Shown: positions 1,180 to 40,568 of the stretch, piece after piece
Layout of the letters: each line of letters begins with the position of its first letter
Numbering within the stretch: the stretch's first letter is position 1
Notes under the pieces: generated by a model
The model's input: only the letters and a program-made list of their open reading frames with translations
Told to the model about the DNA's origin: nothing
Database searches by the model: none
DNA from: Schmidtea polychroa
Lineage: Eukaryota
Length of the DNA: 64,000 nucleotides
Assembly: GCA_044892525.1 (NCBI GenBank)
Contig: CM097886.1
Coordinates: forward strand, 162,986,312-163,050,311
Reading direction: 5' to 3'
Program-made: the position numbers and the translations under genes

Positions 1180-1187
1180 TACAAATT

Positions 1188-1205
1188 TGGGGGCTCAGCC
1201 GGGAT
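1188..1205 (+). promoter_or_regulatory. Primer-binding site, tRNA-Pro type
   Basis: TGGGGGCTCAGCCGGGAT matches the classical tRNA-Pro PBS TGGGGGCTCGTCCGGGAT at 16/18 positions. It lies 8 nt after the LTR end and is absent after the 3' LTR. Confidence 0.85.
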
Positions 1206-2468: not shown

Positions 2469-3876
2469 ATTGCAGCCGAGTGTGAGTTAGTAGAATGTTA
2501 GTAAAACTAATTCCATAATAGCAACCGAAAGGTATAAAACATACGTTGAACATAGACATATGAAATACACAAAAGCCGTTAAATAAATAGACAAGCAACA
2601 CACAAATTAAATTGGCGAAAGCCGTGAATTAAATACAGGACTGGCTGGGATCGCATCAAGTGTGAGCTGATCTATAAGATCAGTACGATTACCATTTTTT
2701 TTTCCTGTTTTTTTTTATTTTTGGCATAGAGAGACAGGACCATAAGGGGATGAGAAGCATATCGTCCCTACGATGCTTACCCGGATGGGGAAATCCTGAT
2801 CACCTTGATGAGAAGAGTATAGTAGGGCCCATCGCAAATGTTGGGGAGTTTCTGTCGAGTGACTGATCACCACTTGTGGGAAATGAACCAACGCGATTAT
2901 TACATTTTTTGAATTTGGGAGACAAGGACAAACTAGAAGGTAAATAAAAAGAAAAAGATAAAAAATAAAAATTGAAAAGGTGCACCAAAAGATAAAAATT
3001 TTAATTATCCGAGAGCAGCTGCGGATTTGAAGAAACCGTTTTTGGACTTCAAATTGGAGGATATGAATTTTTCCCTAGCGAGTGATGAGGCACCCGAGTA
3101 CAGCGGCTAACCACCGGACTGTAGTGTCCAGGAGATTATCAGCCAAGGGACTGATGATGCTGGATCACCCAATACAAAAACCCGGATACCCACACCGAGT
3201 ATTGGGTGCATTTTTTTTTGATTGGCTAGCGGGACTTGATACAAAAACCCGGAAGGGTAGCGAGCGAGAGAGACCCAGTTACCTACACCGAGTATTAAGG
3301 AGCCCAGTGAAACGGTTGTGAGATGCGGGTCAACCGGTAAAGGACTCGTACTCAACAGGCAACCAAGATTGGACCAGTTGTGAGGCGGGAGACCGAGAGT
3401 CAACTGCATATCCAATTTCCTTTTATCTTCACTAGTCGGGAGATCTGGTTCATCACTTTTGAGAATCAAGATCGAGGCGATTAGGCATTTCCGTGTTTTT
3501 TAAATCCTGATAGATAGGATGTTTTTTTCTTCGTGATTATTGCTAGCAGGGGTCGGTACAAAACCCGGATGCCCACACCGAGTACCGATAGGCCCAGTGA
3601 AACGGCGATGAGATTAGGGTTACCGGTATTAAACTCTTTTCAATAGGCGGCCAAGAATTGAGCTAGTTGTGAGGCCTCAGCAGATTAATAATTTGAGTAG
3701 GAGGAACCTTAAATTTTTAATTGGTCCGAAAGTCAACTGTCAACTCAATTTAATCGCGGTAGGGACGATAGTAGGTGTAAAAACTGAAGGCGTCTGGGGG
3801 TTGAAGAAACCTCATTTAGGGCATTTGAAACCGATCAGGGACCGAAGACCGCGAATACGGCGTAAAGGTGTAAAAG

Positions 3877-4715
3877 CCCAGGCGTCTAGGAGTCGTAAAA
3901 GACTTCAAAGATTAAAAGTATAATTAAACCGGCCGGAAGCCGATGCCGACGCGGAGGTCTAATAAACCGAAGCGTTGATGGTTGATAGTGAATTATATGG
4001 CGTAATGGTGTAAATACCCAGGCGTCTAGGAGTCGTAAAAGACTTCGGAGATTAAAAGTATAATTAAACCGGCCGGAAGCCGATGCCGACGCGGAGGTCG
4101 AATAAACCGAAGCGTTGATGGTTGATAGTGAATTATATGGCGTAACGGTGTAAGAACCCAGGCGTCTAGGAGTCGTAAAAGACTTCAAAGTTTAAAATAT
4201 GATTAAACCGGCCGGAAGCCGATGCCGACGCGGAGGTCGAATAAACCGAAGCGTTGATGGTTGATAGTGAATTATATGGCGTAATGGTGTTAAAGCCCAG
4301 GCGTCTAGGAGTCGTAAAAGACTTCAAAGATTAAAAGTATAATTAAACCGGCCGGAAGCCGATGCCGACGCGGAGGTCTAATAAACCGAAGCGTTGATGG
4401 TTGATAGTGAATTATATGGCGTAATGGTGTAAATACCCAGGCGTCTAGGAGTCGTAAAAGACTTCGGAGATTAAAAGTATAATTAAACCGGCCGGAAGCC
4501 GATGCCGACGCGGAGGTCGAATAAACCGAAGCGTTGATGGTTGATAGTGAATTATATGGCGTAATGGTGTTAAAGCCCAGGCGTCTAGGAGTCGTAAAAG
4601 ACTTCATGAGATTAAAATGAGTTGATTAAACCGGCCAGAGAGCCGATGGTAATTGAATGAAAATAAATGATTTAAATGAAATAAGAGAGGTGATTAAACC
4701 AGCCAGGGAGCCGAT
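3877..4715. repeat. Tandem array of about 140-bp units with a 419-bp higher-order repeat
   Basis: CCCAGGCGTCTAGG starts at 3877, 4017, 4157, 4296, 4436 and 4576. Units 1/4 and 2/5 share diagnostic variants. Confidence 0.95.
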
Positions 4716-5592
4716 GGTAAATAAATGTAGACGTAGAGGTCGCGCGAACCGAAGCGTCGATGATTAACTATGAACGAAATAAAAGAGATAAACGATTAAG
4801 ATGAAATCGATTAAATTGACATAGATTAAGTGCGACAAAGAGGTAATGATTAAAGGAAAATTATGATAGAGCGCCGGCGCAAGAGAAAATGAAACCAAAT
4901 TTTTGAATGGGGAAAAGCGAATGAGGAGATATTAATTAAGTTACTGATGAGTTTTATATGTATATGACTAATGATATATATTTTTGAATTATATAATTGA
5001 TGTTGTGATTATACGATAGATAATTGATACGACGATATAGATAATTGATACGAGTTATAGATAATTAAAAATGGACTTAAATTCAAAGGGGGGTGAGTAG
5101 CAAAAAGTAAAAGCGTACCATGAATTAGAAAAGGAACAGCGAGAGAAATAATGAGTAAAGAGTAGTATAAAATAAAGAAAATAGGGAAATAAATGAAGGG
5201 TAGGATAAAATGAATAAAATATTATGATATGTACTAGGAGTGTTAATTATTTTAGAATAAGTCAATCAATAAGTCAGAAGGAAGTCAATACAAGCCAAGA
5301 ATTCAAGAGAAATAAAGAGAAATCAAAAATTCAAAAGAAAACAACTAAGGAATCAAGAGAATCAAACGAGGATAGAAGAAAGGTAAACAAAGTCAAATTA
5401 AATAACAAGAGGAAAATTAAAGCGTTGGCCAACGAAACACAGTGAAATTCAAAAGAGATTATTAAAGCAAGAAAAATTGATAATAAAGCCAATCGAACGA
5501 GATCGCAGAGCAAAGGAGGCTCTAGTTTATTAGGAAACGCAGGGAGACAAAGAGCCAAGAGAAACAGAAGAATCAATAAGAAACCAGCGTCA

Positions 5593-8500
5593 GTGAAAAC
5601 ATTATTTGAATCAGACAGCTTAACCAACGAAAGTGAAAACAGCGACGATATTAAAAGAAACGAATTATATCCGGTAACTGATATCAAACCAACAGACAAG
5701 GAAGATAGTAGTTCAGGCATAACAAGTTTGTGTCGAGATATAATGTTAGACGGAAACCAAGTGAACAACCCGAATGGGTCAGAGTCGACATACACACCCG
5801 AAATAAACCATGTCAACGTCAATGTTGGAGAATTTAGAGAAAGATTTCGAGGAGAACCATTCGATGGGAATATTAATGAACTAGAAACGTTTATAAAAGA
5901 ATTCGAGGTATATATTACGATATGTCACTGGCCAGACATAGTCGTACGAGAGCGAATACCATTATATTTAAGAGGAAGTGCACAAGATGTATATTTAGAG
6001 GCAAAGTGTGATACAACAAAACTAAAAACATGGAAATCAATAAAGAATTTTTTAATAAAAACATTCGGTAGCAAAAGGGAAGTAAATCGCAAAATGTTGG
6101 ATTTTCTGCATCGAAAGCAGAAATACAATGAGTCAAACGCACTATATGCAGGTGAATTAAGACGACTGGCAAAAGAAGCATTCGATTCAAATCAAACAGT
6201 TCCGGAAGACAAGATAATAGCCGTATTCGTAGAGGGTATGAAAAGAAAGGACATACGAGCAACAGTGGGTTGCCGAGCGCCAGACACGCTCGAGGAAGCA
6301 TTAAAAATCGCTAATAAATGTGAAAACTACTTGACTCCAGTACAAGTAGCAGCAATGGCAGCAGTACCAATAGCTACAACACCAACAACGACAACCGAAA
6401 TTAATCAAACCAACAATGAAAATCTAGGAATGAATCAATTTATCTCAGAATCGCAACAGTTGTTCAAGGCGCCAAAAACGACAAATCCAGATAACAGAGG
6501 TAATATTCAATTTTACACTAATAATTTCAGGAGCAACGAGAACAATAATCGGAAGTGTAACATATGTCAACGACTAGGACATTGGAGCAACGAGTGTTAT
6601 AAGACAAGGATGTGCCAAAATTGCGGTAAAAGGGGTCACACAGAAAATATATGCCGAGGACCAATGATGTCGATGAGAAGAGGAAGGACTAGAACCTGCT
6701 ACAGTTGCAACCAACTTGGACATGTGGCGAGAGAATGCGCGATGAAGACAAAACATAATCAACCAAGAGCAAACGATCCAAGTCAAAATATACAAATCAA
6801 CATCATGCAGAAAATTGAACAGTTGAAAAAGATGATCCAACGGATACCAGAGGATATCCGGAAACGACCAACAAGAGAACAACAAGACCAGCAACGAATC
6901 GAAGGGCAGAGACCACTAAACGAAAAAGCCAGAGAAATTCAAAAAAGATGGAAAAAGCGAGAAACCAACACCGGAAGAATAAATATGATGAGATTAATGA
7001 ACAAAGGGGAACCGCACACTGCGGAGCAGTGTGTTAACAAGAAAGGGAGCGATATGACCGTAATCAACGAGACAAAAGTGATAAAAGAAAATGGGTCACA
7101 TCAATTGACGGAGCAATTGACAGAACTGAGTAGCGAGGATAAAATAAAAATAATACAAGGGTTCACCAAAGAAGAAAAAGAAAAGAGACGAAGAAGAGAT
7201 GAAACAGGGCACGAACCAAAAAGCAACGAGATTGTTACAAAGAATCGAATTCAGAGGGTATTACTACAAAAAATTGAAGATAGAATTAGAAGAGAAGAAC
7301 CAAAATTAACGGATGAGCAAGTAAAAGAAAAAGTAAAAGACAACTGGTTCAGGAAAAATGAGTGGTTCGAAAAGAAAGAACCAAGTAACAGAGCCAATAT
7401 AAACATGCTGAGACAAATACAGAATGATCAGACGGATCAGGAAGACGGGAAAAGTGCGATGAGTAGCCTGAGAAGTGAATTATCTCAATCAAGTGATGAA
7501 AATAATGAACAAGGAACACCTCAAAATAACGAAGAGGGTGAGAGCGACGATATGGGATCACTGATAGAAAATGACGATGAGGAAATATTCGAGGAAATTT
7601 CCGACATGGTATCGGAAAGAGAACGAAATGAGAGCTATATCAACGAACCAACATACAGAAAATGTATAAAACTGATAACTCAAGCATACCAGTGGGAAGG
7701 AGATATATTAACGGCAACATGGAAAGATTTGGTGACGAAATATAAAGGAAAATTGAAAGAAGTTGATCCAGATCAATACCAAGTAAGTATTCAACACCCT
7801 GAAACTCAGATACAGATTATTGAATTAAAAGTAACAAATACCGATAAACTGTATAATTGGGTACAACAAAAGATGGGAACAAGTCATAAAAATAAACAGC
7901 TATACGACAATGGTTATAAAGTTAAAATGAGCATACATTTAGTAGATATGATGAGATGGCCAAACGAAGTTAATATCTTAATCTTAAAGAAAAACAGAGA
8001 CAGCGAATCAGTAACGGAAATACTGAGGAAAATCCAACAGATATTCAACAATGAAGTGGAACCAGAAATAGAAAAGACTGAACAAAAGATAATGAAGGAA
8101 AATCAAATAATCGTAGTAAAACAAGCAATCGATCAAGCGAAGAAATATATTAACAGATTTAGGGAAAGATGGCCGCAGCTAATGAAACAGTTTGTCAAAG
8201 ACGTACGGGATACTGAGATTATGGGATTTGAATATAAACGAGCAACGGAGTTGATATCAAAATATGGTGAATACGAGAGAATCAGATGTGAACAAGAATT
8301 ACCATGGCCATCCAACAGAAAAGTGACAATAGTAAGAGAATCACTGAAGAATAGTCATTTAAATAAACACGAAGAAATGATCAAAACATCACATGTCGAA
8401 GACGACATTTTTGGAAAAGGCCGGAGTGGAAAAAATGACAAAGACCATAACGACAAAAATGAGGAAGACGACGGGAACCATGAAAGGAACAACATAAATG

Positions 8501-8745
8501 GGAACTCAAACGAACGAGATAATGAAGAAGACAAGGAGTCAGAAGATGACGACGAAGACTTGAAGGATACTGAGGACAACTCAGACCAAAGTGAAGACAA
8601 CCAACATAATGAAACAGAGAACGACAAACGAAAGTCCCCACTGCATAACATAGTAATGCGGAAGAATCTAAACCAGTCACTCCTACTACAAATTATCCTA
8701 ATAATACTAACGTCAATTTACCTAACAGAAACGAAAAATAGGTGA
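5593..8745 (+). CDS. gag: Gag polyprotein (Ty3/Gypsy capsid, three CCHC zinc knuckles, long charged/acidic extension, C-terminal hydrophobic signal-like segment)
   Basis: 1050-aa intact ORF. Capsid-like FDGNINELETFIKEFE...W...LYLRGSAQDVY...TLEEALKIA; knuckles CNICQRLGHWSNEC, CQNCGKRGHTENIC and CYSCNQLGHVAREC. Confidence 0.92.
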   Translation: MKTLFESDSLTNESENSDDIKRNELYPVTDIKPTDKEDSSSGITSLCRDIMLDGNQVNNPNGSESTYTPEINHVNVNVGEFRERFRGEPFDGNINELETFIKEFEVYITICHWPDIVVRERIPLYLRGSAQDVYLEAKCDTTKLKTWKSIKNFLIKTFGSKREVNRKMLDFLHRKQKYNESNALYAGELRRLAKEAFDSNQTVPEDKIIAVFVEGMKRKDIRATVGCRAPDTLEEALKIANKCENYLTPVQVAAMAAVPIATTPTTTTEINQTNNENLGMNQFISESQQLFKAPKTTNPDNRGNIQFYTNNFRSNENNNRKCNICQRLGHWSNECYKTRMCQNCGKRGHTENICRGPMMSMRRGRTRTCYSCNQLGHVARECAMKTKHNQPRANDPSQNIQINIMQKIEQLKKMIQRIPEDIRKRPTREQQDQQRIEGQRPLNEKAREIQKRWKKRETNTGRINMMRLMNKGEPHTAEQCVNKKGSDMTVINETKVIKENGSHQLTEQLTELSSEDKIKIIQGFTKEEKEKRRRRDETGHEPKSNEIVTKNRIQRVLLQKIEDRIRREEPKLTDEQVKEKVKDNWFRKNEWFEKKEPSNRANINMLRQIQNDQTDQEDGKSAMSSLRSELSQSSDENNEQGTPQNNEEGESDDMGSLIENDDEEIFEEISDMVSERERNESYINEPTYRKCIKLITQAYQWEGDILTATWKDLVTKYKGKLKEVDPDQYQVSIQHPETQIQIIELKVTNTDKLYNWVQQKMGTSHKNKQLYDNGYKVKMSIHLVDMMRWPNEVNILILKKNRDSESVTEILRKIQQIFNNEVEPEIEKTEQKIMKENQIIVVKQAIDQAKKYINRFRERWPQLMKQFVKDVRDTEIMGFEYKRATELISKYGEYERIRCEQELPWPSNRKVTIVRESLKNSHLNKHEEMIKTSHVEDDIFGKGRSGKNDKDHNDKNEEDDGNHERNNINGNSNERDNEEDKESEDDDEDLKDTEDNSDQSEDNQHNETENDKRKSPLHNIVMRKNLNQSLLLQIILIILTSIYLTETKNR

Positions 8746-9960
8746 ATTACGAGAGGAAATCTGAAAGAAGGCGAACTATTCATGATAAAAGTCAGCGGCA
8801 ACGACGGAAACGCGGTCGGGATATGCATCCAATTGATGGAAGGAACCGGAGTAAGTTGTGATTTTAGAACGATAACAAAAGGGAGGATTTTCAATAGTCA
8901 AAATGGAGAACCTGAATTATGCGGAGACTACAACATTTGCGAAGACATAACATCAGAAGAAAAAGAATTGGAAAGAGCTAACGAAACCGGAGTACATGTC
9001 GCAATTAAAGCTACAATGGAAGGTATCGAAATAATAGATAAAGGAAATTTGCCAACAACGCAAATATGTTTTAGAGATGACGAAGACATATGTATAACGG
9101 TGGACATGAAACGAGATCGCGAATTTTTTTGGACAAACGTAAAACCAAACACCAACATGGTGGTATGCGCAGGTACCCAGGCAATAGTGGTATGTAAAGC
9201 AGTTAAAACCGCGCAAATAAAAAGCAGGCCAAAAAGTATGGCTAGTAAACGATATCAACCAAGGATCAAACCGGCAATTAAGAAACCCCAGAAACAATCC
9301 CGTACGGGAATGATAAGAGGACAGCACCAAACCAAGAAAAACACAACAGTAATATGGATCAAAGATGAGAGACGAGAAGTACTAGTAAATGTCGAATTCA
9401 ACAAGATAAGAGAAGAAGTAATCACGGTCAGAAACCAAGGTGAAGAACCAATAGTAAGAGTATGTGTACTAAACAGGACAGGAATAGTCGACTGCATAGA
9501 AACACTACTTGACAAAGGTGCAGAAGTTAAAATGACAATAGGAGAAAGAAAGGGACGATACCACATATGCGTTCTTAAAAACGGAAGCGATTTAAGTTCA
9601 TGCCAAGCAATAACCAGACAACGACCACGGATGATAAACATACTATTGACAACCAGAAAACCAAAAGAAGTGGAAAAGCCAAAAGGAAACGAACATCTAA
9701 CGGCAGAAGAAACGAAACAGTTATACCAGATGCTCAAGAAAAATAAAACACAAGAGGCAACTACAACAGAAACTAAAATGATGATAACGACAGGAAAATT
9801 CAACGAGACACTGATAACCGTTAAAATGATGTGGATCGCTAGCGCAATAATGAGTGCAGTGATAACATCAATAATAATCCAATGGATAAGAACCTCCAAA
9901 ATATGTAAACAAAAACCTAAAGGCAGAAAAAGATGGCCACAAGTGGAGAATTCCGAATAG
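8746..9960 (+). CDS. Cys-rich, putative type-I membrane protein (env-like?) in frame with gag
   Basis: Same frame as gag and separated by one TGA (8743-8745); first ATG at 8782. Many Cys, and a TM-like MMWIASAIMSAVITSIIIQWI followed by basic RTSKICKQKPKGRKR. No family recognised. Confidence 0.5.
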   Translation: MTRGNLKEGELFMIKVSGNDGNAVGICIQLMEGTGVSCDFRTITKGRIFNSQNGEPELCGDYNICEDITSEEKELERANETGVHVAIKATMEGIEIIDKGNLPTTQICFRDDEDICITVDMKRDREFFWTNVKPNTNMVVCAGTQAIVVCKAVKTAQIKSRPKSMASKRYQPRIKPAIKKPQKQSRTGMIRGQHQTKKNTTVIWIKDERREVLVNVEFNKIREEVITVRNQGEEPIVRVCVLNRTGIVDCIETLLDKGAEVKMTIGERKGRYHICVLKNGSDLSSCQAITRQRPRMINILLTTRKPKEVEKPKGNEHLTAEETKQLYQMLKKNKTQEATTTETKMMITTGKFNETLITVKMMWIASAIMSAVITSIIIQWIRTSKICKQKPKGRKRWPQVENSE

Positions 9961-11600
9961 GGTATTCCAACAGAAAACCCGAATCCAGAAGAGTACGAAG
10001 CGATTGAAGATCCAAGGTCAAGCAGACTATGGATGCAAGAATTACTCAGAATACAAACCCTAGACGATTGGGTAAACGAATTTGACATATACCGGCTAAC
10101 GGATGAAAGATATGGGGGGATGCGCACATTGCATTCAGGTCCCCTGGCAACAATGGTATAAGAAAGTGATGAGTCGATGTAAATAGTGTGTATATAAACG
10201 TGAGGGTAAAAGTAGTTTAGTAGATTAGTAATATGTTCAAAAAAAAAAAGGTACAAAAAAAAATGGGTAGGATAACTACGTATTATGAATGAATCAGAGA
10301 AACGAGGATCAAGTATATCAAACGAGGATACCACATGTTGTTGAATTGGGAAATCAACCACTAGTAAACATTAATCAGACATAAATAGTAGAAATTGATA
10401 CAAGTACAACGATAAACCAACCAAGTTAGTCAGCAGGATCAATGTGAAGAACACAATGTGAATTAATGACAAATGACAAATCATACCCAAGAATATCGGT
10501 TACGTAATTAGAATGCGTTAATGGAGAGCATCAATAGAAACTCGATATATATAACAAGAATAAAAGAGCAATAACAAATAATCGCACAATTAAAATACAA
10601 TAACAAACAGTTGATAAGCCAAATAAAATGGGAGGCAGGAGAAATCGGGAGATTACACGAAAACCATCAGCATGATGATATAACGAGTTAAGTTGAATGG
10701 ATAACCGGCCTACCAGGAACTGGGGAACCGGACTCAACGAGAGAGGCATAAAAGAAGGGAAAAGTAGCCCTGTAAACAAACAAAATTATAGCCAAAGTAG
10801 AAAATCCGAAATTAAACGCTATCATGGCAGAATGCCGAGGGAAAGTGGAGAGAAGTGGAGGAACAAAACTATTAATTATGAGCTGATAAGAAAATATTAG
10901 GTCAAGTCAGATGAATTCGAGGAGAGACTATTGTGTGTGGACAAAGTGTGTAGAAGATTATTAATAGGACACGTCAAACCCTATGAGGATGTAGATTATG
11001 CCATGGAGGTACTACACGAATTGTAACGAGAAAAGCAGAAATTAAAGAGAGAACCACAGCAAGAATCAGCCACATCCCAGATGACAATAATAATAAAAAT
11101 CTTAGAAGAAATAAAGCAGCGAATAATGATGACTGTCAACGAATGTCCGAGCAACTATGAAACAAAGACGCTCGAAGAAATAAAGGAAAGGGTAAATAAC
11201 GCAGTCAAAGAAAAGACAATTACTCAAGATGAAATAATAAAAACATTGAGAGAGATATAGATGGAAATAATAACAACTATTGACAAAATCCCGATGAACC
11301 ATGAGACAATGACCAAAACTTTAGAAGGAATAAAGAGGAGAATATCAACTACCTTCAACGAAGACTTCGCATACTAAAATGTCCTAATAAAGATGTTCAC
11401 GGAAATCTGGAAAGGAGTAATGACGACAGTAAACAATACCCTACACACTGAATCAAATAACCTCGAAGAGGAACTCAACTCGACTGATACAATCCAACTA
11501 ATGAAAACAGTGAGCACGTTGCGAGAGATATAGAAAGAAGTGACAATCAAAACAAGGTCAGCAGAAAAAAAAAAATTGAATGTAAAGAAAACCCAGAATC
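9961..11600 (+). pseudogene. Degenerate continuation of the retroelement polyprotein
   Basis: The same A-rich codon-like composition continues after the TAG at 9958-9960, with many stops. Helical repeats TLEEIKERV / TLREI / TLEGIKRRI near 11100-11550. No RT, RNase H or integrase motifs seen. Confidence 0.55.
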
Positions 11601-13949
11601 CATAACAGTACTGATCCTGTCAGCAGCGAATCTCATGATAAATAACAATACTGAGCTTGATAGCCCTTAAACCCACTCAAATCCATGAAAGCACCAAAAT
11701 CTCTCAAGTTGAAAGAACAATTCCGAAGCATTCGCATTCTAATAGACGAACCAATACCCAGAGACCAAATCTATCAAATCTATCAAATCTATCTTCTACA
11801 ACCTTCAAAACTAGAACCGTCATCGAGACGAGATCCCGAACAACCGAGTGTTTAAATCCTGATATAAACCGACAATGATCTTGATATAATATGACAACGA
11901 TATTGAGTTGATTGACAATGTTCTTATTATGTGTTGACAATGATCCTGATTCGATTGACAATGATCTGAAAATGATCTAGATGTGATTTAATAATGATCC
12001 TGACATGATACAACAATGATATGATTTGATTATTATTGTGATTTGATGCCAATATTATATATTACTATGATATTATTTGAGCATAACAATTTAATTAAAT
12101 TTTGTGTGGACCGACCTTGGTCTTCTTTCTCTTCATCTGTAAACCAATCTGTAGCATGTAGCTTATCAGTAGAAACTTTTTATGTATGTGGGTATTGAGG
12201 TCACGACCCTGTAGCTCGTGGACCCAATTACATGTAGGCACTTGTAATACAGTGCAACCAATTCTGTCTAATTATATCTTGAACATTGATTAAATTGCGG
12301 GTCGCAATTTTATGGGCCCCCGAGTGTTTTATGTTGGGCTAGAACTGATTTCTAGACCCAAAGTTAGGAATGGGACGAAATGTGTCAGTACACAACACGC
12401 ATACCCAGCATTAAGTTTACTTAAATAAAAATATATAAAACACCAAGTAAACAATGATAATAGAGAGATAATATACCCAAAAATAAAACATCTGAATTAA
12501 AAATAAAATAAAACACGAGCAAGAAGTATTACATGAAAACTTACTCAAATATAACCAAAAGACATAAAACAACAAAAAACAAATTCGAATAAAGGCAATT
12601 AGTAAAAATTAAAAAAGAAAATTAAAGAAAATCTTCATAAAATCTTACGTAAAGAAAATTATATCGATATTTTGAATAAAAATCCAGAACAATTCATAAA
12701 AATGGCGAAATCCATCATGACGGCCAAACGACCCAATAAAATTTATAAAAAATAAATATTTTAGTTTAAAAAATAAATATTTTAGAAAAGAAATCATAAA
12801 AAACAATTTAAAAATAAGAAATAGATTAAATTTAGCATGGAATGTTCTGGAAATGCTGAAATCCATCATGGAGGCAAATTTAATAAAAAATAATTCGAAA
12901 ATAAAATTTCAAAAATAAAAACAAAAATTCTTACTGAAAAATCGCCATTAAAATCGATAAAAATTAAAAATCGAATGTTCGAGAATTAAAATAATTCGAA
13001 TTTGTTTTACTGCATCAATGCACGCATGTATACTTACACGTCAAACAGAGGCTATATAAACTAACACATTTCGTCACTTTTTAAGCAAGCAAAATATGCT
13101 AATGTTTACTCTTATGCCAAATTTTTGATTTTGATTTTTCTGAGATTGTAGGTAAGGACGATTTCATTGTGAATTATAAATTATTATTATTGAAACCTTG
13201 TTTTCATTATTTCTTTTTAACTATAGAAATGTAGGTTTGAGTGAGATCGTCGGTTATCATTGATTTTGGAGCGAGATCCCAGTCAACCCTGCACCTATGC
13301 ACTTTATCATCGATGATTAAACAGCCCACAATGATTGCAGGTCACTGCCTGGCACGCACTTATCAATATTATTTGTTTTTTTTTGTTCAGGTCATTCGGA
13401 GGTCGCACCACTTCATGGTTCTGCCATGGAGTTAAGTCGATGAAATCCTCCGTCTGACTCTACCTATTTATTATAGGTCAGCCGTAAAGGGTTGACTTAC
13501 CACACAACAGTAAGGTTTGTCGTAGTGGTCACAGTGGGGCCGCGAAAGCAAACACTCCTCCCGACTTTCAATGCATGAATAATTTACATAGTTAAAATCT
13601 ACATCCAAAAGCATCACAATACAATACACTAAGGTTAATAAACAGAGTAGATCTCAGACCTAAATCAATCACAACTCTACAATTCACAATTAATGTAGAC
13701 GGTTAAATATCATCAAGAACCCACTCTACCTATACGTTTGTCGAATCTAGATTCATGAATGTCTTAAATAAATTTTTTTAGTAATAGTGTAAAGCAAAGA
13801 TTTTTAAAGATGATTAATTTAGTAGTGATAGTATTCATAAAGGTGTTCGACATGCGTATCAGCAAGACTTGGATTTTAAATTGAATAGACTCTAAACTAA
13901 CTATAAAAATACCAATCGTAAACCCATAAAAGTATAAACTATCCTCTCA

Positions 13950-14800
13950 ATTTCATAAAAATATGAATTATACTTATAGATTCAATTTCTTCAAAATATA
14001 AATTATGATTAGTTATAAAAGTATAAATTATAAATTTAATTTCCTAAGAATATAAATTACAAATCTATATTGACGGTAAAATTATAAATTATAACTCTAA
14101 GTTAATTACAAAAGTATAAATTATAAAATTATATTAGCCTTAGAACATAAACTATAAATTTAACTTAACCTCATAAAAATATAAATTATAAACTTAAAAG
14201 TATAAATTATAAAGTTATATTAGCTTTAAAAATATAAATTATAACCTTAACTTCATAAAAATATAAATTATAAAATTATATTGGCTTTAAAATATAAACC
14301 ATAAATTTAACTTCATAAAAATATAAATTATAAACTTAAAAATATAAATTATAAAATTATATTAGCTTTAGAAATATAAACTATGAATTGAACTTCACCA
14401 AATATAAATTATAAACTTAAAAATATAAATTATAAAATTATATTAGCTTTAAAATATAAACCATAAAATTAGCTTCATAAAAATATAAATTATAAACTTA
14501 AAAATATAAATTATAAAATTATATTAGCTTTAGAAATATAAACTATGAATTGAACTTCACCAAATATAAATTATAAACTTAAAAATATAAATTATAAAAT
14601 TATATTAGCTTTAAAATATAAACCATAAAATTAGCTTCATAAAAATATAAATTATAAACTTAAAAATATAAATTATAAAATTATATTAGCTTTAGAAATA
14701 TAAACTATAAATTGAACTTCACCAAATATAAATTATAAACTTAAAAGTATAAATTATAAAATTATATTAGCTTTAAAATATAAACTATAAATTTAACTTA
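13950..14800. repeat. AT-rich minisatellite inside the LTR (AAATATAAATTATAAA-based units, about 160-bp higher-order period)
   Basis: Many copies of AAAATATAAATTATAAA; the block GAAATATAAACTAT...TTCACCAAATATAA recurs near 14370, 14535 and 14695. Confidence 0.85.
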
Positions 14801-15140
14801 ACTTAGATTGCCTTTAACATCATAGTTGAAAATTTTTCATCAAAGACCCCCCATAAACCATATAGTCATCAACTACCACCTAAATATACTAAATTAGCTT
14901 ATCTTAATATATATTTAACTTATATTATATTTTAAAATATAAATTGAAAATTTTCATAAATGACCCCCCTTCAAATTATGTAGCCATTAACTATTCCTTA
15001 GGTATACTGAATTGTATCATCTTCGTATAGAGTCAAATTATATTTCAAACCAAAAAAAAAAAAAATAATAATTCCATAAATTTTCGTAAATGATCCCCCC
15101 CCCCCCATATGTAGTAATCTTATAAAAATATAAATTTACA

Positions 15141-15275
15141 TTTATTATTATTATTATCGTTATTATTATTATTATTGTTATTATTATTATTATTATTATT
15201 ATTAGCATTGTTACCAGTAACATTATCACTCTTACTATTATTATTACTATTATCATTATTATTATTATATTATTA
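15141..15275. repeat. (ATT)n-rich microsatellite inside the LTR
   Basis: Direct reading; an expanded equivalent lies at about 35790-36360 in the solo LTR. Confidence 0.9.
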
Positions 15276-15789
15276 AAATAATTATCTTTATTTCATAAAA
15301 ATAAAATTATAAAACAAATTATTGATTTTGGGATTCCCCTATCTTTAAATTTAGTTTCAATGGCCCTATCTTCCAATAAAATTACGGAAAATCACTAAAA
15401 TCTATTTTTAGTAACACCCCCCCCCTGAAAACGACATCAATATTATTAATTTAAATTATATCCATATATGTATATATGTGTGGGTGTATATGTATGTGTA
15501 TATATAAGTGGATGTGTGCATGTACATACCGATTTATAAAGCAACCTTATAAAAATACGATAACCTTCCCCTCAAGACCCCTGTTATGTGATGGTCACAA
15601 CCCCCTTAAGGTGATGGAGCGAGGTTAGAGTAGTTTACTGAAGTAATTTAGTAGAATCATTTATTGATTTATTAGAATTATTGGATTTATTTTTAACTAA
15701 ATCAAAAGAGACTAAATTTATTTTTAACTAGATCAAAAAAAAAAGAAAAACAAAGACTAAGTTTATTGATTTCGATCATCAACTTTATT

Positions 15790-16250
15790 CATATAATTGT
15801 TTCTTTGAATCATAGTTATACCAAGGTCCTTCGAGCACGGTTGATGGACCATCCCAATGAAATACATTTCCTGGAGTTGGAAGACTTCTGGGTAATTCCT
15901 TATTTTCTGCTTCGTTCCTTTTGGTTCAATGACTTACATATTGATTTGACGTAATATTGTTGGATGGCCAACTATATTCCTTGCATCTCTTTTTGAGTAG
16001 TCATTGTCAGATAATTCCGCCAGGAAGATTAGTTGGTGGAACTGACCTTGGGGCAATCAAACCTTCGTACCTCACTGAATTATTATCAACTCGATTGCTA
16101 AGGAAATTAATGAAGTTAATTAATTAAATTAAGGAAGTTAATTACAATTTTCTCATTGGTGTTGTCAAACGATCTTTGCTCATTCGAGATGTCATAATAC
16201 ATTATTGATCAATAGTAATTGTTCGGAGATTCGGCCAAATGCTGATATCC
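15790..16250 (-). pseudogene. Putative spliced antisense gene remnant within the LTR U3
   Basis: Minus-strand segments DISIWPNLRTITIDQ*CIMTSRMSKDRLTTPMRK, NRVDNNSVRYEGLIAPRSVPPTN and SLPTPGNVFHWDGPSTVLEGPWYNYDSKKQLYE* are separated by GT...AG blocks of about 50 bp. The first segment resembles a minus-strand segment at about 36850-36990. Confidence 0.45.
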
Positions 16251-17227
16251 CTGAAATATTATGAAATTTTAGGATATAAATGCTTAAAATTTTAATTTAT
16301 TTACATTATTATATCAAAGTTAACTAAAATCATATATTTATTCAAAATTTGTTATTTAACATTAATTATAATTACTATAATAAAACAACGAAAATTTAAA
16401 TAATGTTAAATAACTTTAACAAAACAAAAAGTAATAATGAAATCAAAATTCCATTACTTTATTTAAATTATTAGTTACCAACTTGTTCTAGTATTTTAAC
16501 ATAATGAATTCAAGTATATTACGGAGTTAGTTTGGTCATTTGAGGAATATTATAAATTGAAAATTTAAGTAGATTAGAATTATTTACTCTTCATAAGAAC
16601 TTTTATGATTGTAATGAATCTAAACTTCATATATTAATATTACCCATAATTTACAAGTGATATTTGGATTATGTTAAAATAGGTTGTAAGTTAACTTAAC
16701 TAAATTGAAATTTTCTTTTGATCAGGTTATCGTGGGGAATGCATGTTATCTTTATCATTTCTATTGTTTCAGTTTATTAAGTTTTTTTTTTTTCTAATTA
16801 AATTCATTAGTCTCAAAAATTTCTTGAGGTTTGTTTAATAAACTATGGTTAGGTTTCACTTAATTTATATTCAAACATTTTAGATGTGGTGTTGTATGAA
16901 CAGGCTTTAATAGAGTAATGTATGATTCCTGATGACTTATGATCGTTTGAGGATAGAAAGTTTGTATAGGCATAGTTGAGGAAGTGATTATAATAAGGGA
17001 CCTGCGTAAATCGGACATACATCTTCTAACGATAGTCCGTGAACCCATTAGAGTGCTCGACAATTACAGTGCAAGTAGTGCGCTCACTTTTTGCGAGTAC
17101 TCACCCTCTTGATACAGTACCAACGTTGATCGTTCAACGGGTATCAAGCGGTAAACAATGTTGTATTCTGGGTTACGCTGGAAACAGCACTAAAGAACAA
17201 AATATTTGATCATCAGTAACCCACCAT

Positions 17228-26447: not shown

Positions 26448-26715
26448 ATTCTTGACCAACCTAACCAGAGTGAAGAAGAATCGCAAGCGGAATCAGTTAC
26501 TCGCCTCCGGACCCGCTTGGTTTGGTATAAAATACATGAGTGGACACGGGGAGGATTAGTCGACCTTGGACCCATCATTCAGACTGAATGCGAGCCAGGA
26601 GCCTGGGTCAAGTCCGAACCAAAGAACAACGAGCTATACCAGGCCAGGCAGGAGGCGGATGTAACAGTAGCCAGGCTTCGCCTTGGAGTCCGGAGATCCG
26701 GTGGAGGAGGTAGAA
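26448..26715 (+). pseudogene. Divergent homologue of LTR-encoded ORF A (N-terminal part)
   Basis: VTRLRTRLVW...GAWVKSEPKNNELYQARQEADVTVARLRL aligns with ITRLRTRYIW...PAWVKTEPENNRLQEARDQAAWDVEAAQIRL of 37477-37857. Confidence 0.75.
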
Positions 26716-26719
26716 ATTA

Positions 26720-33542: not shown

Positions 33543-36036
33543 TTATACAACAATAAATAGTATAATAATACTTATGAAACTATACTTATGAAATAATTTA
33601 AATTATCCTTTTCTAGTTCTGATATAAACATATATGGGAAAATATCAATTATGCTACTATAAGTTGCTATTAAAGTCTATTACATCTGGTTTTATAATTT
33701 AGGTTGCGAGTAATTTATTAATATCCTATTAATTATGAATATTTGATGGGTTACAACATACGGTTGATTAAATTATTAAAATGATATGAGATAATTTATC
33801 GACCCAAAGTCCATGTAGAATTTATAGTGAGTATAAATACAAGATATGAGATTATACTGCTATTATATATAATAATAGTTCATAAATTAGAATTAAATTT
33901 AATCTATTCCTTATTTTTAAATTGTATTTTGTATATTGTTGGGCTAGAACTGATTCCTAGACCCAAACTTCTAATTGTGGCTGCAATGTGTAGGTACACA
34001 ACATGCAAAAAGCAAAAAGTATAGTCAAATATTAAAAATACACCAAATAAACAATATTAACTAAAGGAGAAAGCAACAAAAATAATAAACACACAAATTA
34101 AATAAAATTATACCAAAAGCAAGAAGTTATGCAAAATAGAACTCAAAAATAACCAAACAAACATAGAGTTACAAAAAACAAACTCGAAAAACTTAAAAGA
34201 CGATAAAAACAACAAAAAAATTCCAGAAAAACCCAGAACATTCCATAAAAATGGCGACAATCATCACAAAAGCTACCTTGAACAATAAAAGTTAGAAAAA
34301 TAACTAAATTAGTAATAAAAATAAAAATTCGTAAAAAGAAATTCATAAAACATAGGTTAAAATAAAAATAAAATTAAAATTAACATGGAATGTTCTGGAA
34401 CCGTTCCAAATCCATCATGGACGTCAAATTAACGAAAAATAATTAAAAAATAAAAATTTAAAAATAAAAACAAAAATTATGGCACAAAAATTGCCATTAA
34501 AAATAGCAAAATCGCAAAATAGAAAATTCTGGAATAAAAAAGAATTGGAGTTTGTTTTAATGCATCAATACATACACGTGTACAAAATAGGTATATATAC
34601 TGACACGTTTCAGCCACAGAGCATCATTATTTTATGCCAAAAAAATTTCTTTTTGTCAAAAGGATATCAATAGTAAGTATTATTGTGTCAATTTTTTTGT
34701 GTACTATTATTTGTGTATTACTATTATTAACTCATCTATGCTAAAAGAGATTTTTAACGATTTTATATTTTTGATTTTCATTAGATCAACTTTTTGAGCA
34801 ATGTACGAAGGTTCAACGGCGTATTGGTGTTCCTGCGCCGTTGTTCGGTCCTACATTCGATTTTGGAAAATTTCATAGGACATGCCAACATGCATTATCT
34901 ATATTATATTAATCGATATTATACGGTTCTTTTTGTTCGGGTCAGCCGGAGGTCGAACTACTTCATGGTCCTGCCATGGAGTTAGGTCGAGGAAACCCTC
35001 CGCCTGACTCCTTGTATTTATTTAAGGTCAACCGTAAATGGTTGACTCAGCACACAACACTAAGGTTTGTGGAAGTGGTCACAGTTGGGCCATGGAAGCA
35101 ATATTCTTCCCGACCTTTTACGTAACACATATTTAAATTCAACATTTAAAATTAGTACAACACAAAATACACTAAGGTTCTAAATTGAGTAGAACTCATA
35201 CCTAAACTTACACAGTTCTGCAAACACACTAAAGTAGCTGGTCGATTAATAATAAAATTTGGGTTACGCGTGGACATATGCCGAATTGGGTTTGGTAACA
35301 TCATCTCATATTAATTGGAATAGAAACGGGAAAATTATTCGGCCTATGTCCAAGTAGAGCCTGCTAAGGGGTCGACTATGAACTCATTCCCCCGCAGATA
35401 TAGAATTATGAATTATGAAATACAAAATTATAACTCGTAGGATATAAAACTGTAAATTAGAGACTATAATATTAATAGTAGAATATAAAGTCATCAAGGG
35501 TAAAAGAAAAATTATATAACATAAATTCCTAAATCGAAGAATATAAAGTCATGAAATGAAAAATTTGAACTTGTGAAATATGAATTTACAAATTATAAAA
35601 TTAGAAGTTGGAATGGTAAATTAGGAATTATCAGAATATGAATTTATAAAGTGTAATGCATAAAATTGTAACCTATAATCAGTACATAGGACCTGCCCCG
35701 AACTATCAAATATTAATCCTGATATAACCCTCCAACAGGTATGAAAGTAAATTATAACGATGTATAAGTGAATACATTCAACATTATTAGCAGATTTACT
35801 CATATTATTAACATTATTACTCTTATTATTATTGTCATTATTATTATCATTATTATTAACACTATTGTTATTAAGGTAAATTACAACGATTTACAAGTAA
35901 ATATTATCAACATTATTACTCTTATTATTATTGTCGTTATTATTATCATTATTATTATCACTATTGTTATTAAGGTAACTTACAACGATTTACAAGTAAA
36001 TATTATCAACATTATTGGCAGTATTACTCATATTAT

Positions 36037-36269
36037 NNNNNNNNNNNNNNNNNNNNNNNNNNNNNNNNNNNNNNNNNNNNNNNNNNNNNNNNNNNNNNNN
36101 NNNNNNNNNNNNNNNNNNNNNNNNNNNNNNNNNNNNNNNNNNNNNNNNNNNNNNNNNNNNNNNNNNNNNNNNNNNNNNNNNNNNNNNNNNNNNNNNNNNN
36201 NNNNNNNNNNNNNNNNNNNNNNNNNNNNNNNNNNNNNNNNNNNNNNNNNNNNNNNNNNNNNNNNNNNNN
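36037..36269. other. Assembly gap (N run) within an (ATT)-rich repeat
   Basis: Run of N. Confidence 1.
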
Positions 36270-37476
36270 TCATCATTTTTACCATTACTATCGTTATTAT
36301 TACCACCATCACCCTTAATTTCATGGTTATTAATGCAATCATTAATAGTATTATCATTAGTAACATGATCTCAGTACAATAGGTATCCTTATTTGACGAA
36401 AATAAACTTAGAAACTGAATTATTAATTTTGGGATTCCCCTATCGCTAAATTTAGCTGCATTAGCCCTATCTCCCCATAAAAATCACGGAAAATCACCAA
36501 AATCTAATTTTAACAACACCCCCCCCCCCCCCGGAGGACGACGTCAAAGTATTGATTTGAATAATGTAGAGGCACGCACATATACATATGTAAACATGCG
36601 TGGGTGTGTAGTTAGGTAGTACCTATACATACATGGATGTGGGTGGGGACTTAGAGGTCCAAAGAGTAATAAAAATACAATACCCCCGTAGTACCTTGAA
36701 CACAACCCGTTAGAAGAACAAAATAACGACAATATGATTAATTAAATAGTTCGTTAAAATAATGTATTAATTCACCATGAGAATTAAATTTATCTTCAAA
36801 ACAAATCAAAATACAAAGTTCAAGTTAAATTTTATTGATCTGAAATCAAACGATTATAAACCCAATTGTCAAGGAAATCTAAAAATCTTCTCAGCAGTAT
36901 CGTCGAGCTATCTTTATCCATGTGAGGGTCCATAGTGTAGTTTTGATCAGTGCTGACTGACCCGAGAGTTCGGCCGAAAACTGGTATCACTAAAATAATT
37001 ATTAACAAGTTTATGAGAAAATTACTAACTACTTGAATTCATTTCCTCTATTTTGTCAATGTTGACTAAAATTATTTAAAAATCATTGTTTGGCCTTGAG
37101 GACGATTGCTGTGATAAAACAAGGAAAATTTAGAGAATGATCAATAACTTTAAACAACAAAAGGAAAAAGGAATTGTTCATTAAATGGGTACACTAAAAA
37201 ATCTAAAGCAAATTTTAGTTAGATGTATTTATATTAACTATAATAAATTTAGTGGGTAATAAAAATATACTGCTAAATTAAATCGAATTGTGAGGTTAGC
37301 AGTACCGGTACTAATTATAATAAATTTAATAGTTACTTAAAAATTATACTGATAAACAAAATCAAGATTTTAGACTAGTAGCATTAGCATCAATTGCAAC
37401 AACTTTAGTAGTTTGAGCATTATGGATTCTAAACCAGGAATTTCTGACGTCTATTTATAAGTCACATTGATTATGC

Positions 37477-37857
37477 ATGGATCTTAATGGTTATTCTCCA
37501 GACATGTCTCAATCCAACGATAGCAGCAGCATCAAAGAAGACGATCGGCAGACGATCACCCGACTCCGTACTCGGTACATTTGGTGGAGTCAGGGACGGG
37601 ACCTGGATTGCGCAGATCGAGTAATCCGGACGGGCCCCGAAGTAGATGCCCCGGCATGGGTGAAGACGGAGCCGGAGAACAACCGGTTGCAGGAAGCCCG
37701 CGATCAAGCGGCCTGGGACGTAGAAGCCGCTCAGATCCGGCTTAAGAAGATAGAGCTACAAATCAGGGCAGAAAGGGAAGGGGTTCCCTTGGAAGAATTA
37801 GAGGAGGCCGAGGTACCCCCGAGAAGGAGAGGAAGGCCCCGCAAGCATCAATTGTGA
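37477..37857 (+). CDS. LTR-encoded ORF A: small protein with SUMO consensus (VKTE), coiled coil, acidic patch and C-terminal AT-hook
   Basis: Intact 126-aa GC-rich ORF inside the AT-rich LTR, ending PPRRRGRPRKHQL; protein-level homologue at 26448-26715. Confidence 0.7.
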   Translation: MDLNGYSPDMSQSNDSSSIKEDDRQTITRLRTRYIWWSQGRDLDCADRVIRTGPEVDAPAWVKTEPENNRLQEARDQAAWDVEAAQIRLKKIELQIRAEREGVPLEELEEAEVPPRRRGRPRKHQL

Positions 37858-38152
37858 ACAAAGGCCGATAATTGACGTAGTACAATAACTCCTTACTTAG
37901 TGGGTGTGGTTTAATTAATAATCAATCTTGACTAGTGTTTATTGTTGAATAATAATCTCTTATTCATTTGATGTCTTAATTAAAGATTAAAATTGACTGG
38001 GGTTTATCATTAAATGAAGTGTTTTCCTTTTAAATTGAGTTATAAGTAACCAGTATAACAATGTCCTAGCGACACATTACTAGTATTGATTAATTGGTAC
38101 ATTATTCGCTGTTCCAACTCTTTTAGCATGTGTAAAATTAATAACACCTTTT

Positions 38153-38632
38153 ATGTTTTCAGTGTATAAGTTAATGGAGAACCTGCGGAAGGATCGGGAG
38201 CAGGCCCAACAACAAGCAGACGAACTCCGGACCCGAGTAGATAAACTAAAAGGGAAATGTCGGGAGTTCGAGGGGACCTGGTTTAGCCCCGAGGCGATGA
38301 AAAGGAAAACCACCCAGATTCTCCAGCTGCAGACGCAAGCCGCCCAGGATCAAATGGAGATTCGCGCCCTAAAATTGTAGGTGCGGGTGCTCGAAACCGA
38401 ACGGAATGAGCGGTTTGTGCAGGAATCCGCAGCAAGGCAAATCCGGCCGCTGACCGTCGAGCTGGCAGCGATATATCCTCCGGCCGTTGAAAGCAAACCT
38501 AAACGAAAACGGCTAGGACGAAACATCCGTGAAAAATTAAAGAAGGCCAGGCTGGCCGAGTACGAAAGGCAAGTGGACTCATCGCAAACGTCTACGACGG
38601 GACTAATTGGTCCCACTAACAAGCCGAGTTGA
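38153..38632 (+). CDS. LTR-encoded ORF B: coiled-coil protein with NLS-like basic motifs, one in-frame TAG
   Basis: ORFs 38153-38380 and 38381-38632 are contiguous in one frame, split by one TAG. Contains KPKRKRL and REKLKKARL; homologue at 29230-29500. Confidence 0.6.
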
Positions 38633-39025
38633 ACTGTTATTCCGTTTTTTGTAGTGTGTTTTGTATATTTGTAGTATTAAAATAATATTTTTTATTGTTG
38701 TTACAATAATACATATTTTGTAGCGTTAAAATAATGTCTGGTATATTTATGATTGTCTGAGAATCGAGAGGTTGTGCGTAAGGTTGGGAAAACAATCTTG
38801 ATAAGGGACCTGAGGAAATCGGACACAAACCTTCTAACGGTAGTCCGTGAACCCATAGAGTACTCGGCGATTATAGTGCCTCGATGCGCTCACTTTTCGC
38901 GGGTACTCAACCCCTTGGTACAGTACCAACGTTGATTACTTAACGGGTACCAAGCGGAAACTAATGTTGTATTTTGGGTTACGCTGGTAACATAACTTAA
39001 TCATTCGACCACCTGTAACCCACCA

Positions 39026-39472
39026 ATATCTTTTTCTAAAATTTTTACATTTTAAACTAAAATATTTATTTTTTATAAATTTTATTGGGTTGTTTGGCGT
39101 CCATGATGAATTATGGATTGTTCTGGATTTTTATTCAAAATTTTGATATAATTTTCTTTAAGTAAGGTTATATGGAAATTTGTTTTAATTTTCTTTTTAA
39201 TTTTTTTTCTAATCGCCTTTGGTCTTGTTGTTTTTGTTGTTTTATGTCTTTCGGTTATATTTGAGTAAGTTTGATACTTCTTGCTCGTATTTTATTTTAC
39301 TTTTAATTCAGATGTTTTTGTTTTGGTTATATTATCTCTCTATTATCATTGTTTACTTGGTGTTTTTAAGTATATTTATTTAAGTAAACTTAATGCTGGG
39401 TATGCGTGTTGTGTACTGACACAATTCGTCCCCTTCCTAATTTTGGGTTTAGAAATCAGTTCTAGCCCAACA
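39026..39472 (-). mobile_element. Inverted 5'-end fragment of the LTR family; it continues at about 33893-33936 on the other side of the solo LTR
   Basis: Reverse complement of about 12332-12790, ending ...CTAGCCCAACA at 39472. The sequence left of 33933 continues the same alignment. Confidence 0.85.
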
Positions 39473-40568
39473 ATTATATCTTCTCAATATTTATGCTGAG
39501 TTTATTGAGTTTTCGCTTCTATATTTACTCTGAATTTTTTAGAATTTTCGCTTTATCTTTGTTCAGACTTTTCATAGAGTTTTATCTTTGGGTAATCATG
39601 CCCTAATTATACACCGGGTAGGTGTCCATCAGCACATTAGACCCTGGGTTTCTATGTTTATCTTTAATGGATGCTCATTCGGTCACTGTTAGGATCCCTT
39701 CAGTTTGTCTTTCAAGTTGTTGATGATCGATTTTCATTTTTTTAATCTACTTTTTTATTTGTAAATTTTTAAATCTACATGTTATTTGTTTATCAATAAA
39801 AGTTAAAACGAAAAATCCAGAGAGATATAGAAAAGAGAATATAATCGTTAATTCAATAAGCCAGTGACAATCTAGGTAATAAGTAAAAATTGTTAAAGTC
39901 CAAACTTGAGGTAGCAAAGCAACCATATCAATTGTGCGAGATGCCAGCCACTACCAGTAGTTAGTTGGTCGTATAATTTAAGTGTTCATAAAGTGCTATT
40001 CGCCCAGAAGGGTTTCCCGAATACGTTTCAGTTGCATTGATTAATTGGTGTCATTGTAATTGTTATAACCATTTGACGTATTCAATAAAGTTTTATTAGT
40101 TAGGATTCGTATTGTTGTTGATTAAAAGCACACTCGTAATCAGAGAGTAGTCATTGATTTGAAAAAACTACCGACAACGAACTAACCCCAAAATATTTTT
40201 AAAAATTAACTCTGGTTTTATTTATATTTTATTTTCTTTGCTTTGCTTTTCGTTTTATTTAATATTATTCTTCAGATTACATAAAATTGCACAAACAAAT
40301 TTAAAAGTGCAAAATATTTAAATGTGTAACCAATAAAACTCAAAAACTTGTATTTAAAATAATATTAACAAAAAATTATTAAAAATCATATTTGTGAGGA
40401 AAATGTATGACAAGTAGCAGGTTAAAATTTTAAGGCGACTATATTAATTAAAATTGAGGCGGTTCTCAGGTAGAGGTATTAAAAAAAATTATTAATTTTC
40501 AAATTAATTGCTGATAAACTCACATCGTTCAGGCACACAACCAGAAAACTTGTGAAAAGTACGCTAAC

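Follow-up and report, generated by a model that had tools for sequence, protein, structure and literature searches.

LTRs are ordinarily non-coding, and MMTV-type sag of betaretroviral LTRs was found mostly in solo LTRs (490/527), with a family dN/dS of 0.29 and no evident selection after insertion (PMC4667437). Giant gypsy-like elements of the Burro/GYPSM1 type, known from planarians, have been described as exceeding 30 kb, with multi-kb LTRs, Gag CCHC, MATH, Env between gag and pol, PR-RT-RH-IN, and ankyrin and BIR/RING frames, and in all these features the family analyzed here resembles them (PMC6431247). The published layout also matches the internal domains of a full-length element found here (PMC6431247).

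Here, we analyzed a 64-kb stretch of DNA (the window), in which an earlier note, made from the letters alone, had described a gene for a small nuclear protein, ORF A, inside a solo LTR. A second frame in the same LTR, ORF B, had been missed. We tentatively read the two as an LTR-driven pair of nuclear chromatin or transcription regulators that would act on the transcription of the element itself.

The solo LTR and its parent element

The solo LTR was delimited at 33937..39025 on the forward strand (5,089 bp, of which 233 bases read N). It starts with TG and ends with CA, and identical bases on both sides form a 4-bp TSD without strand (left 33933..33936, right 39026-39029), so the TSD-bounded solo LTR of the earlier note was found as described. 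It contains neither a primer site nor an internal region, and the same LTR type flanks full-length elements. The solo LTR was inserted in an older LTR of the opposite strand, the 5′ part of which occupies 39026..39473 (reverse strand) and the remainder of which extends from 33936 to ~31454; both of these parts align in order with the element 1 LTR (1..17226, forward strand). Element 1 is young and non-autonomous, having Gag without Pol, LTRs that are 99.96% identical, and a 4-bp TSD, and its 4.9-kb LTRs keep the TATA block described below and lack both ORF A and ORF B. Element 1 (also L031:6283-10000) further showed a decayed RING frame in its leader (~2050-2400) and a 140-base tandem repeat (3855-4650). 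Nesting of LTR in LTR recurs: a second LTR promoter block, oriented opposite to element 1, lies just before it (L031, reverse, near 5079), besides the solo LTR in its opposite-strand host (window 33936/39026).

An old, truncated ORF A homologue of a distant subfamily was found at 26454..26690 (forward strand), with an ORF B remnant at 29269-29434 and an RT-bearing non-LTR insertion in between. This homologue is 40% identical to ORF A (E 1e-9, over query residues 20-87) and lacks the AT-hook, being cut by the insertion. The RT-bearing insertion in the old LTR remnant lies at 26700-28700, and hAT-like transposase remnants were also noted in the window (23783-24850 and 51914-55085).

The genome, 781 Mb in four large contigs, was then searched with ORF A. 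At least 150 matches were obtained (150 scored out of 2,230 candidates), each of at least 79% identity; 13 of the scored matches had an internal stop and 28 came from a single tandem array. Of four paired loci that were read, two proved to be larger duplications; the other two are full-length elements in which each LTR carries ORF A and a primer site follows the 5′ LTR. Together with the genome-wide matches, these elements indicated that the gene belongs to the element family, as the earlier note had supposed, and is not a one-off insertion. The two full-length elements measure ~40 and 39 kb, with LTRs of 5.6 and 5.4 kb, and the first contains a nested 3.9-kb LTR. Pfam analysis of 11 open segments of one of them identified Gag CCHC knuckles, MATH, TRAF, BIR/RING and ankyrin domains, and a viral fusion glycoprotein (Env-like) that precedes PR-RT-RH-IN. 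In both elements, the leader that separates the primer site from gag also contains a 160-codon RING-finger frame (L032:6695-7174, L037:6728-7207). By size, LTR length and domain layout, the parent of the solo LTR is thus assigned to the Burro/GYPSM1 type, and its host is accordingly taken to be a planarian.

In 20 further regions, 11 LTRs were delimited. Ten of these are solo LTRs bounded by 4-bp TSDs, and the remaining one is a 5′ LTR followed by a primer site; the TSD sequences vary freely. The search with the 26.5-kb homologue uncovered two more subfamilies, of ~70% and ~45% identity, both also residing in TSD-bounded LTRs. One solo LTR of the distant subfamily (2,057 bp, TSD-bounded, L109:5024-7080) kept remnants of A and B and had lost the TATA/leader region. 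In a tandem array at G000:C2:173.74-173.81 Mb (L145), a 418-base unit, 98% alike between repeats, corresponds to the ORF A acceptor plus codons 1-108 without the hook, and 19 units were counted in 8 kb.

Reading frames A and B

The frame at 37477-37857 is open for 126 codons and is GC-rich (56% GC versus 35% for the LTR), as the earlier note had claimed. That note had also taken it as an intact copy of a single-exon, 126-aa protein, and both points had to be given up. Five codons are missing from the conserved core at ~37584, the sole such case in 59 copies, and just 10 of 29 close copies have the first ATG, at 37477. The ATG at 37504 is the start that is conserved, and it forms part of an acceptor-plus-start signal, YAG-NN-ATG (37499..37506, forward strand), which was found in 50 of the 59 copies and in three subfamilies, and the sequence before this acceptor is unalignable between subfamilies. 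The contrast between the conserved YAG-NN-ATG and the unconserved first ATG suggests that splicing likely produces ORF A as an exon of ~121 codons. As redefined, ORF A spans 37504..37857 (forward strand), with 117 codons here and 119-122 in the other open copies.

The gene that the earlier note had assumed shows coding constraint. Counting methods applied to 32 open copies gave a dN/dS of 0.19 over 496 pairs, which are not independent, with a clear contrast between frames; the 32 had been picked from 59 as stop-free, 117-122 codons long, and having the start and part of the hook. The shifted forward frames gave 1.1 and 1.3, and the reverse frames gave 1.2, 0.35 and 1.8, the 0.35 belonging to the frame that shares third positions with ORF A. 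Pooled pN/pS was 0.29 (bootstrap 0.22-0.37) and fell to 0.18 in the long helix. A third-position excess was also observed, and start and stop are kept across 45% identity. By these sequence comparisons, ORF A is a constrained, LTR-resident gene of the element family.

ORF B occupies 38163..38632 on the forward strand, after a conserved branch point and an acceptor at 38160-38162. As for ORF A, two bases separate the acceptor from the frame, and other subfamilies have L, F or I in place of the Met within the exon. Its dN/dS was 0.11 (25 open copies), and the shifted forward frames of A and B together gave 1.1-1.9. The copy in the window has a premature stop at 38378-38380.

Variants private to single copies behaved differently from shared ones. 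In 39 frame-intact copies of ORF A, private variants had a pN/pS of 0.55 and included six stops, whereas shared variants had 0.24 and no stops; for ORF B (36 copies), the corresponding values were 0.55 with eight stops and 0.18 with none. The constraint on shared variants against the near-neutrality of private ones indicated that selection acts in replicating lineages and that inserted copies decay, a pattern also reported for sag (PMC4667437). This bears on the proposal of the earlier note that solo LTRs are mobile gene cassettes, which we do not retain, as private variants are near-neutral and hold all the stops. A solo LTR has neither a primer site nor internal genes and cannot move by itself. 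Most inactivating changes occur in one copy only, so that solo LTRs resemble relics in decay. The window copy is decaying: its A core is short by five codons, its B is stopped and its leader is out of phase. One full-length element carries an identical ORF A stop in both LTRs, which, together with the young element 1 that lacks A and B, indicated that both genes are dispensable in cis.

Predicted proteins and their relatives

The ORF A protein comprises, in order, an acidic N-terminus, a Trp-rich core, VKxEP, a long amphipathic helix of 36 residues (7 of 10 heptad positions hydrophobic), and a C-terminal AT-hook-like motif; its model is weak (pLDDT 68, pTM 0.35) and all helical. The core motif VKTEP, a candidate proline-flanked SUMO site of the form psi-K-x-E, lies at 37660..37674 (forward strand). 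V, K, E and P are present in 39 of 39 copies of two subfamilies, and over all 59 copies K is found in 54 and E in 57. VKTE (37660-37671) and its counterpart VKSE in the 26.6-kb homologue (26607-26618) were both found where the earlier note had seen them. The best-conserved block is wider than the one given in that note, AWVK[TS]EP.NN.L..AR, and x is not restricted to T or S, being T in 26 of the 59 copies, V in 17, Q in 10, and another residue in six. The motif fits the SUMO/synergy-control definition (psi-K-x-E, Pro or Gly flanks, x free), and proline-flanked psi-K-x-E occurs in the synergy-control motifs of transcription factors (PMC3554661). When a natural copy was shuffled 200,000 times, chance produced psi-K-x-E in 9.6% of the shuffles, [VI]KxEP in 0.35% and [RK]GRP[RK] in 0.14%, indicating that the bare SUMO consensus is weak by itself and that its conservation is what counts. 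The candidate lysine sits at the end of a four-residue helix in a low-confidence part of the model (pLDDT about 57-66), and a structural role would explain the conserved W, V, K, E and P as well as SUMO.

If SUMO is attached, ORF A might be a self-limiting repressor, made early from every LTR and dampening LTR activity, thereby controlling copy number or latency. SUMO in proline-flanked motifs restrains activation (PMC3554661), and with solo LTRs in the thousands (2,230 candidates), the dose would rise and fall with the number of copies. Near-neutral private and constrained shared variants point to a benefit during replication, which such a repressor fits less simply, and we regard it as unlikely.

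The motif RRRGRPRK, with which the ORF ends as the earlier note had read, lies at 37822..37845 (forward strand) and is AT-hook-like and a possible nuclear localization signal. It has the lowest pN/pS of the protein (0.09, in copies that had been selected for part of the motif), and an AT-hook-like motif is also present in the 45%-identical subfamily; across 39 copies, the core is G in 38, R in 39 and P in 37. Concerning the AT-hook that had been claimed, the GRP core flanked by K/R and P (PPRRRGRPRK) stands, whereas the Pfam AT_hook profile PF02178 scores 13.6 bits, below its 17.4 cut-off; 14 of 24 aligned members match that profile at E<=1, the best at E 0.0055. The AT-hook is defined as a GRP core with flanking K/R/P, which the ORF A motif fits (PMC11354804). 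RRRGRPRK may nonetheless be a mere localization signal or bind RNA. Two further likenesses were also considered. A chromodomain, a three-stranded sheet plus helix suggested by W..EP.N.L, was rejected because the model is all helical and a Chromo Pfam hit is absent, and a Myb reading was not supported.

That the basic motif merely localizes the protein is part of another explanation, in which A and B are effectors directed at the host, like the BIR/RING and TRAF/MATH cargo of the element. The internal region does encode several host-modulating domains, and the LTR-borne sag of MMTV acts on the host and not on the LTR (PMC4667437). However, no host homologue was found, and the exact G-R-P core, needless for a plain localization signal, is kept; we consider this explanation improbable.

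The ORF B protein is predicted to form a long coiled coil and to have an EGTWFSP motif and a basic C-terminal helix, and its model (pLDDT 81) is all helical. Co-folding of A and B gave a score of 0.49, whereas the best of three controls gave 0.00; contacts agreed by at least 54% between runs, and partner pLDDT was at least 61. In calibration, 51 of 78 solved pairs and 2 of 108 mismatched pairs reached the mark, but at <=0.60 it was reached by 5 of the 78 solved pairs and by all 4 passing mismatches. The modeling thus lends weak support to pairing of A with B in a complex.

A distant relative of ORF B was found in a sister family. A 3,908-bp solo LTR (L033:1572-5479), nested in one full-length element, encodes a 247-codon homologue (hhalign probability 95.7, E 1e-8, 24% identity) that shares EGTWFSP and the basic helix with ORF B and adds an acidic-hydrophobic C-terminal tail reminiscent of activation domains. 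The weak tblastn hit of B within a full-length element, considered as an internal paralogue, proved to be this nested sister-family LTR. The sister family, which has a polyprotein frame of 4,345 codons, is very young, its LTR having 22 identical matches among 150 scored (6,579 candidates). A 29.8-kb sister element (G000:C2:126528965-126558762) has LTRs that are 99.9% identical and matches the A-bearing family in domain order. Its RT region is 90% identical to that of the A-bearing family, whereas the LTRs differ strongly, indicating that the LTR genes diverge far faster than RT. ORF A was not detected in the sister family. LTR-borne B is therefore common to the two families by sequence, A is not universal, and perhaps not every lineage needs it.

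These nested insertions bear on a further alternative, that A is an adaptor of the LEDGF type, holding viral cDNA or the integration complex on chromatin, or guides target choice. LEDGF is reportedly tethered to chromatin by AT-hooks together with a localization signal, a precedent for such a role, and the solo LTR and the sister-family LTR were each inserted in other elements of their own group. However, in a genome rich in repeats, two such nestings are no proof of targeting, nothing ties A to integrase or the particle, and the TSD sequences vary freely. We hold such tethering to be quite unlikely.

Relatives outside this genome were sought widely. No homologue of ORF A was found among 41 near-length candidates and 7,999 longer ones scored, nor of ORF B among 8,000 scored. 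Viral and metagenome contigs yielded 32 and 234 pattern matches, respectively, none of which was confirmed. The lone profile hit among 1.84 billion proteins (E 4.7e-5) was an ankyrin-repeat protein and was discarded, having an hhalign probability of 0.3. The Atlas gave zero usable hits for A and only leads below 0.9 for B. The best PDB sequence match had E 0.017; a fold search with the pLDDT-68 model of ORF A gave zero PDB or viral-library matches at E<=0.001, and a Pfam scan gave zero Sag-type family hits at E<=1. The collections searched may simply contain few planarian proteins.

The absence of homologue and fold, the low Atlas recognition and the damage to the window copy would suit a chance or relic GC-rich stretch without protein function. 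At the family level, this view is refuted by a dN/dS of 0.19 solely in the ORF A frame, the third-position excess, and the conserved start and stop, and we give it very little credence.

Expression signals, possible roles and known systems

A conserved TATA-box block, a predicted promoter, was identified at 34590..34604 (forward strand), ~655 bases into the LTR, and occupies the same position in 10 of 16 LTRs under a strict pattern. It is followed by ATGCCAA and then by a GT(A/G)AG donor, all near LTR bases 655-740. The predicted leader exon spans 34624..34672 (forward strand), with a conserved ATG at 34634, the donor GT at 34673 and A as its last base. This last base is A in 12 of 12 A/B-bearing LTRs with the donor, and the length from ATG to donor is 1 mod 3 in 10 of the 12, across five lengths; the 12 share ancestry and are not 12 independent events. 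The leader frame is stopped in 3 of the 12, and in the window copy it is out of phase. In the LTR of element 1, the last leader base is G and the phase is another. A candidate poly(A) signal of exon A lies at 38013..38018 (forward strand), reading AATGAA here and AATAAA at the aligned place in other subfamilies; among 34 copies, this hexamer, ~150 bases past the ORF A stop, is AATGAA in 21 and AATAAA in 8. The position of the TATA block at +655 suggests that the A/B genes lie downstream of a start site, and one leader is likely spliced to exon A or exon B as alternative last exons. The acceptor upstream of gag has a phase without a direct match to this leader.

RNA was analyzed as contigs of four runs; the joints of run X1 were left out as of unclear content, and its depth profile, which is like that of X3, is uninformative about expression. 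The contigs of the four runs contained zero leader-A or leader-B junctions and gave zero start sites or strands for A/B. Run X7 contained one contig of an ORF A relative, and run X2 contained two of ORF B relatives. A loose end at 38163 in run X2, considered as a splice into exon B, turned out to be genomic sequence of another subfamily. A genome search for intron-less copies gave none for B and one hit for A, which has the normal intron and is false.

On the reverse strand, a spliced and polyadenylated RNA was observed at 36819..37109, with a 43-nt GT-AG intron (37032-36990). Contigs of X2 and X7, runs that come from two studies, lack this intron, whereas those of X3 do not show its removal; X2 also showed a 19-nt untemplated tail at 36819. 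The intron is kept across subfamilies, and the RNA runs away from ORF A. This antisense RNA indicated that LTRs of the solo-LTR family are transcribed and spliced internally. It is likely non-coding and could be a regulatory RNA or a piRNA precursor. A peptide read from it was rejected, having a dN/dS of 1.0 (15 close pairs), stops or shifts in the others, and presence in just 13 of the 59 loci.

Were transcription to start near +690, the genomic RNA would begin with introns and poly(A) signals, which makes the following our main rival reading: that A, B or both are Rev- or CERV-like and bind element RNA, so that the unspliced genome keeps its LTR introns, passes the poly(A) signals and leaves the nucleus. 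If the TATA block at +655 is the main promoter, the genomic RNA would open with ~4.3 kb holding the donor, two acceptors and candidate poly(A) signals, all of which would have to be bypassed. CERV is itself a spliced, nuclear, lineage-specific accessory protein that a gypsy element requires to export its genome (PMC10309623). Stem-loop RNA can be bound by AT-hooks (PMC11354804), and B has a basic helix. A hairpin-rich non-coding block at 34940..35120 (forward strand), a candidate RNA element, is conserved at 78-91% identity across subfamilies and is present in all of them, including one without the ORFs. Its predicted folds reach -62 to -70 kcal/mol in four LTRs, energies taken without a shuffle control. 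However, these structures differ among the four LTRs, an Rfam scan of the block gave zero matches at E<=1, and sequence likeness of A or B to Rev- or CERV-like proteins was not found. We rate an RNA-export role as a serious but rather doubtful candidate.

We now return to the regulator pair, the reading we tentatively prefer. The TATA promoter of the LTR itself would drive the short leader, which would be spliced to A or to B. The final A of the leader would give ORF A a purine at -3 and would complete the ATG of ORF B across the junction. ORF A would bind AT-rich LTR DNA through its hook and so be tethered to chromatin, would pair with B through the helices, and would be tuned by SUMO at VKxEP. 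Together, A and B would favor transcription of the element, acting in trans; selection would operate during element replication, and solo LTRs would keep the genes as passengers and then decay. Activation and repression are not separable from sequence.

A bolder form of the regulator-pair reading, which we hold to be rather less probable, is that the LTR is a complete early gene unit and that A-B acts as a switch, tethered by the AT-hook and tuned by SUMO, to activate the giant genome and oppose its silencing. If so, thousands of solo LTRs would supply the switch in trans, and the LTR would be the first LTR-contained regulatory circuit in a gypsy-like element. More broadly, a known family of giant elements keeps two constrained orphan genes lying wholly in its LTR, in three subfamilies, and a sister family has a distant relative of B. 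The LTR genes account for part of the 4-6 kb LTR length, and they are two concrete candidates for factors by which the planarian elements of highest activity control their own expression or respond to PIWI silencing (PMC6884822, PMC8532177). Planarian annotations may likewise contain many small "genes" that are LTR exons.

We did not find genes inside the LTRs of Burro or other gypsy elements described in the literature searched; the primary Burro reports and supplements, outside this search, may annotate them. The Burro/GYPSM1 description compared here gives polyprotein domains plus internal accessory ORFs and names no LTR gene, the comparison being one of layout (PMC6431247). Conserved additional ORFs of plant LTR retrotransposons are likewise family-wide extra frames of obscure origin (PMC7264820). 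HMGA-type AT-hook proteins have the same GRP core with K/R and P, whereas ORF A has one hook instead of three, placed on a helical domain (PMC11354804). CERV of C. elegans Cer1 resembles the genes described here as a lineage-specific, spliced gypsy accessory gene with a nuclear product and zipper-like and basic motifs, and differs in its 517 aa, its exons in common with gag, its position between the LTRs, and the lack of detected sequence likeness (PMC10309623). MMTV sag is also a gene within the LTR that is kept in solo LTRs. However, Sag is one host-directed membrane protein whose gene lies mostly in U3 (PMC4667437), whereas the present LTR carries two small predicted nuclear proteins, likely encoded by alternative last exons, in an invertebrate gypsy-like element. 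Thus, the element class and LTR-borne retroviral genes such as sag are known, and what appears new, judged from sequence, is the presence of two constrained orphan genes inside a Burro-type LTR.
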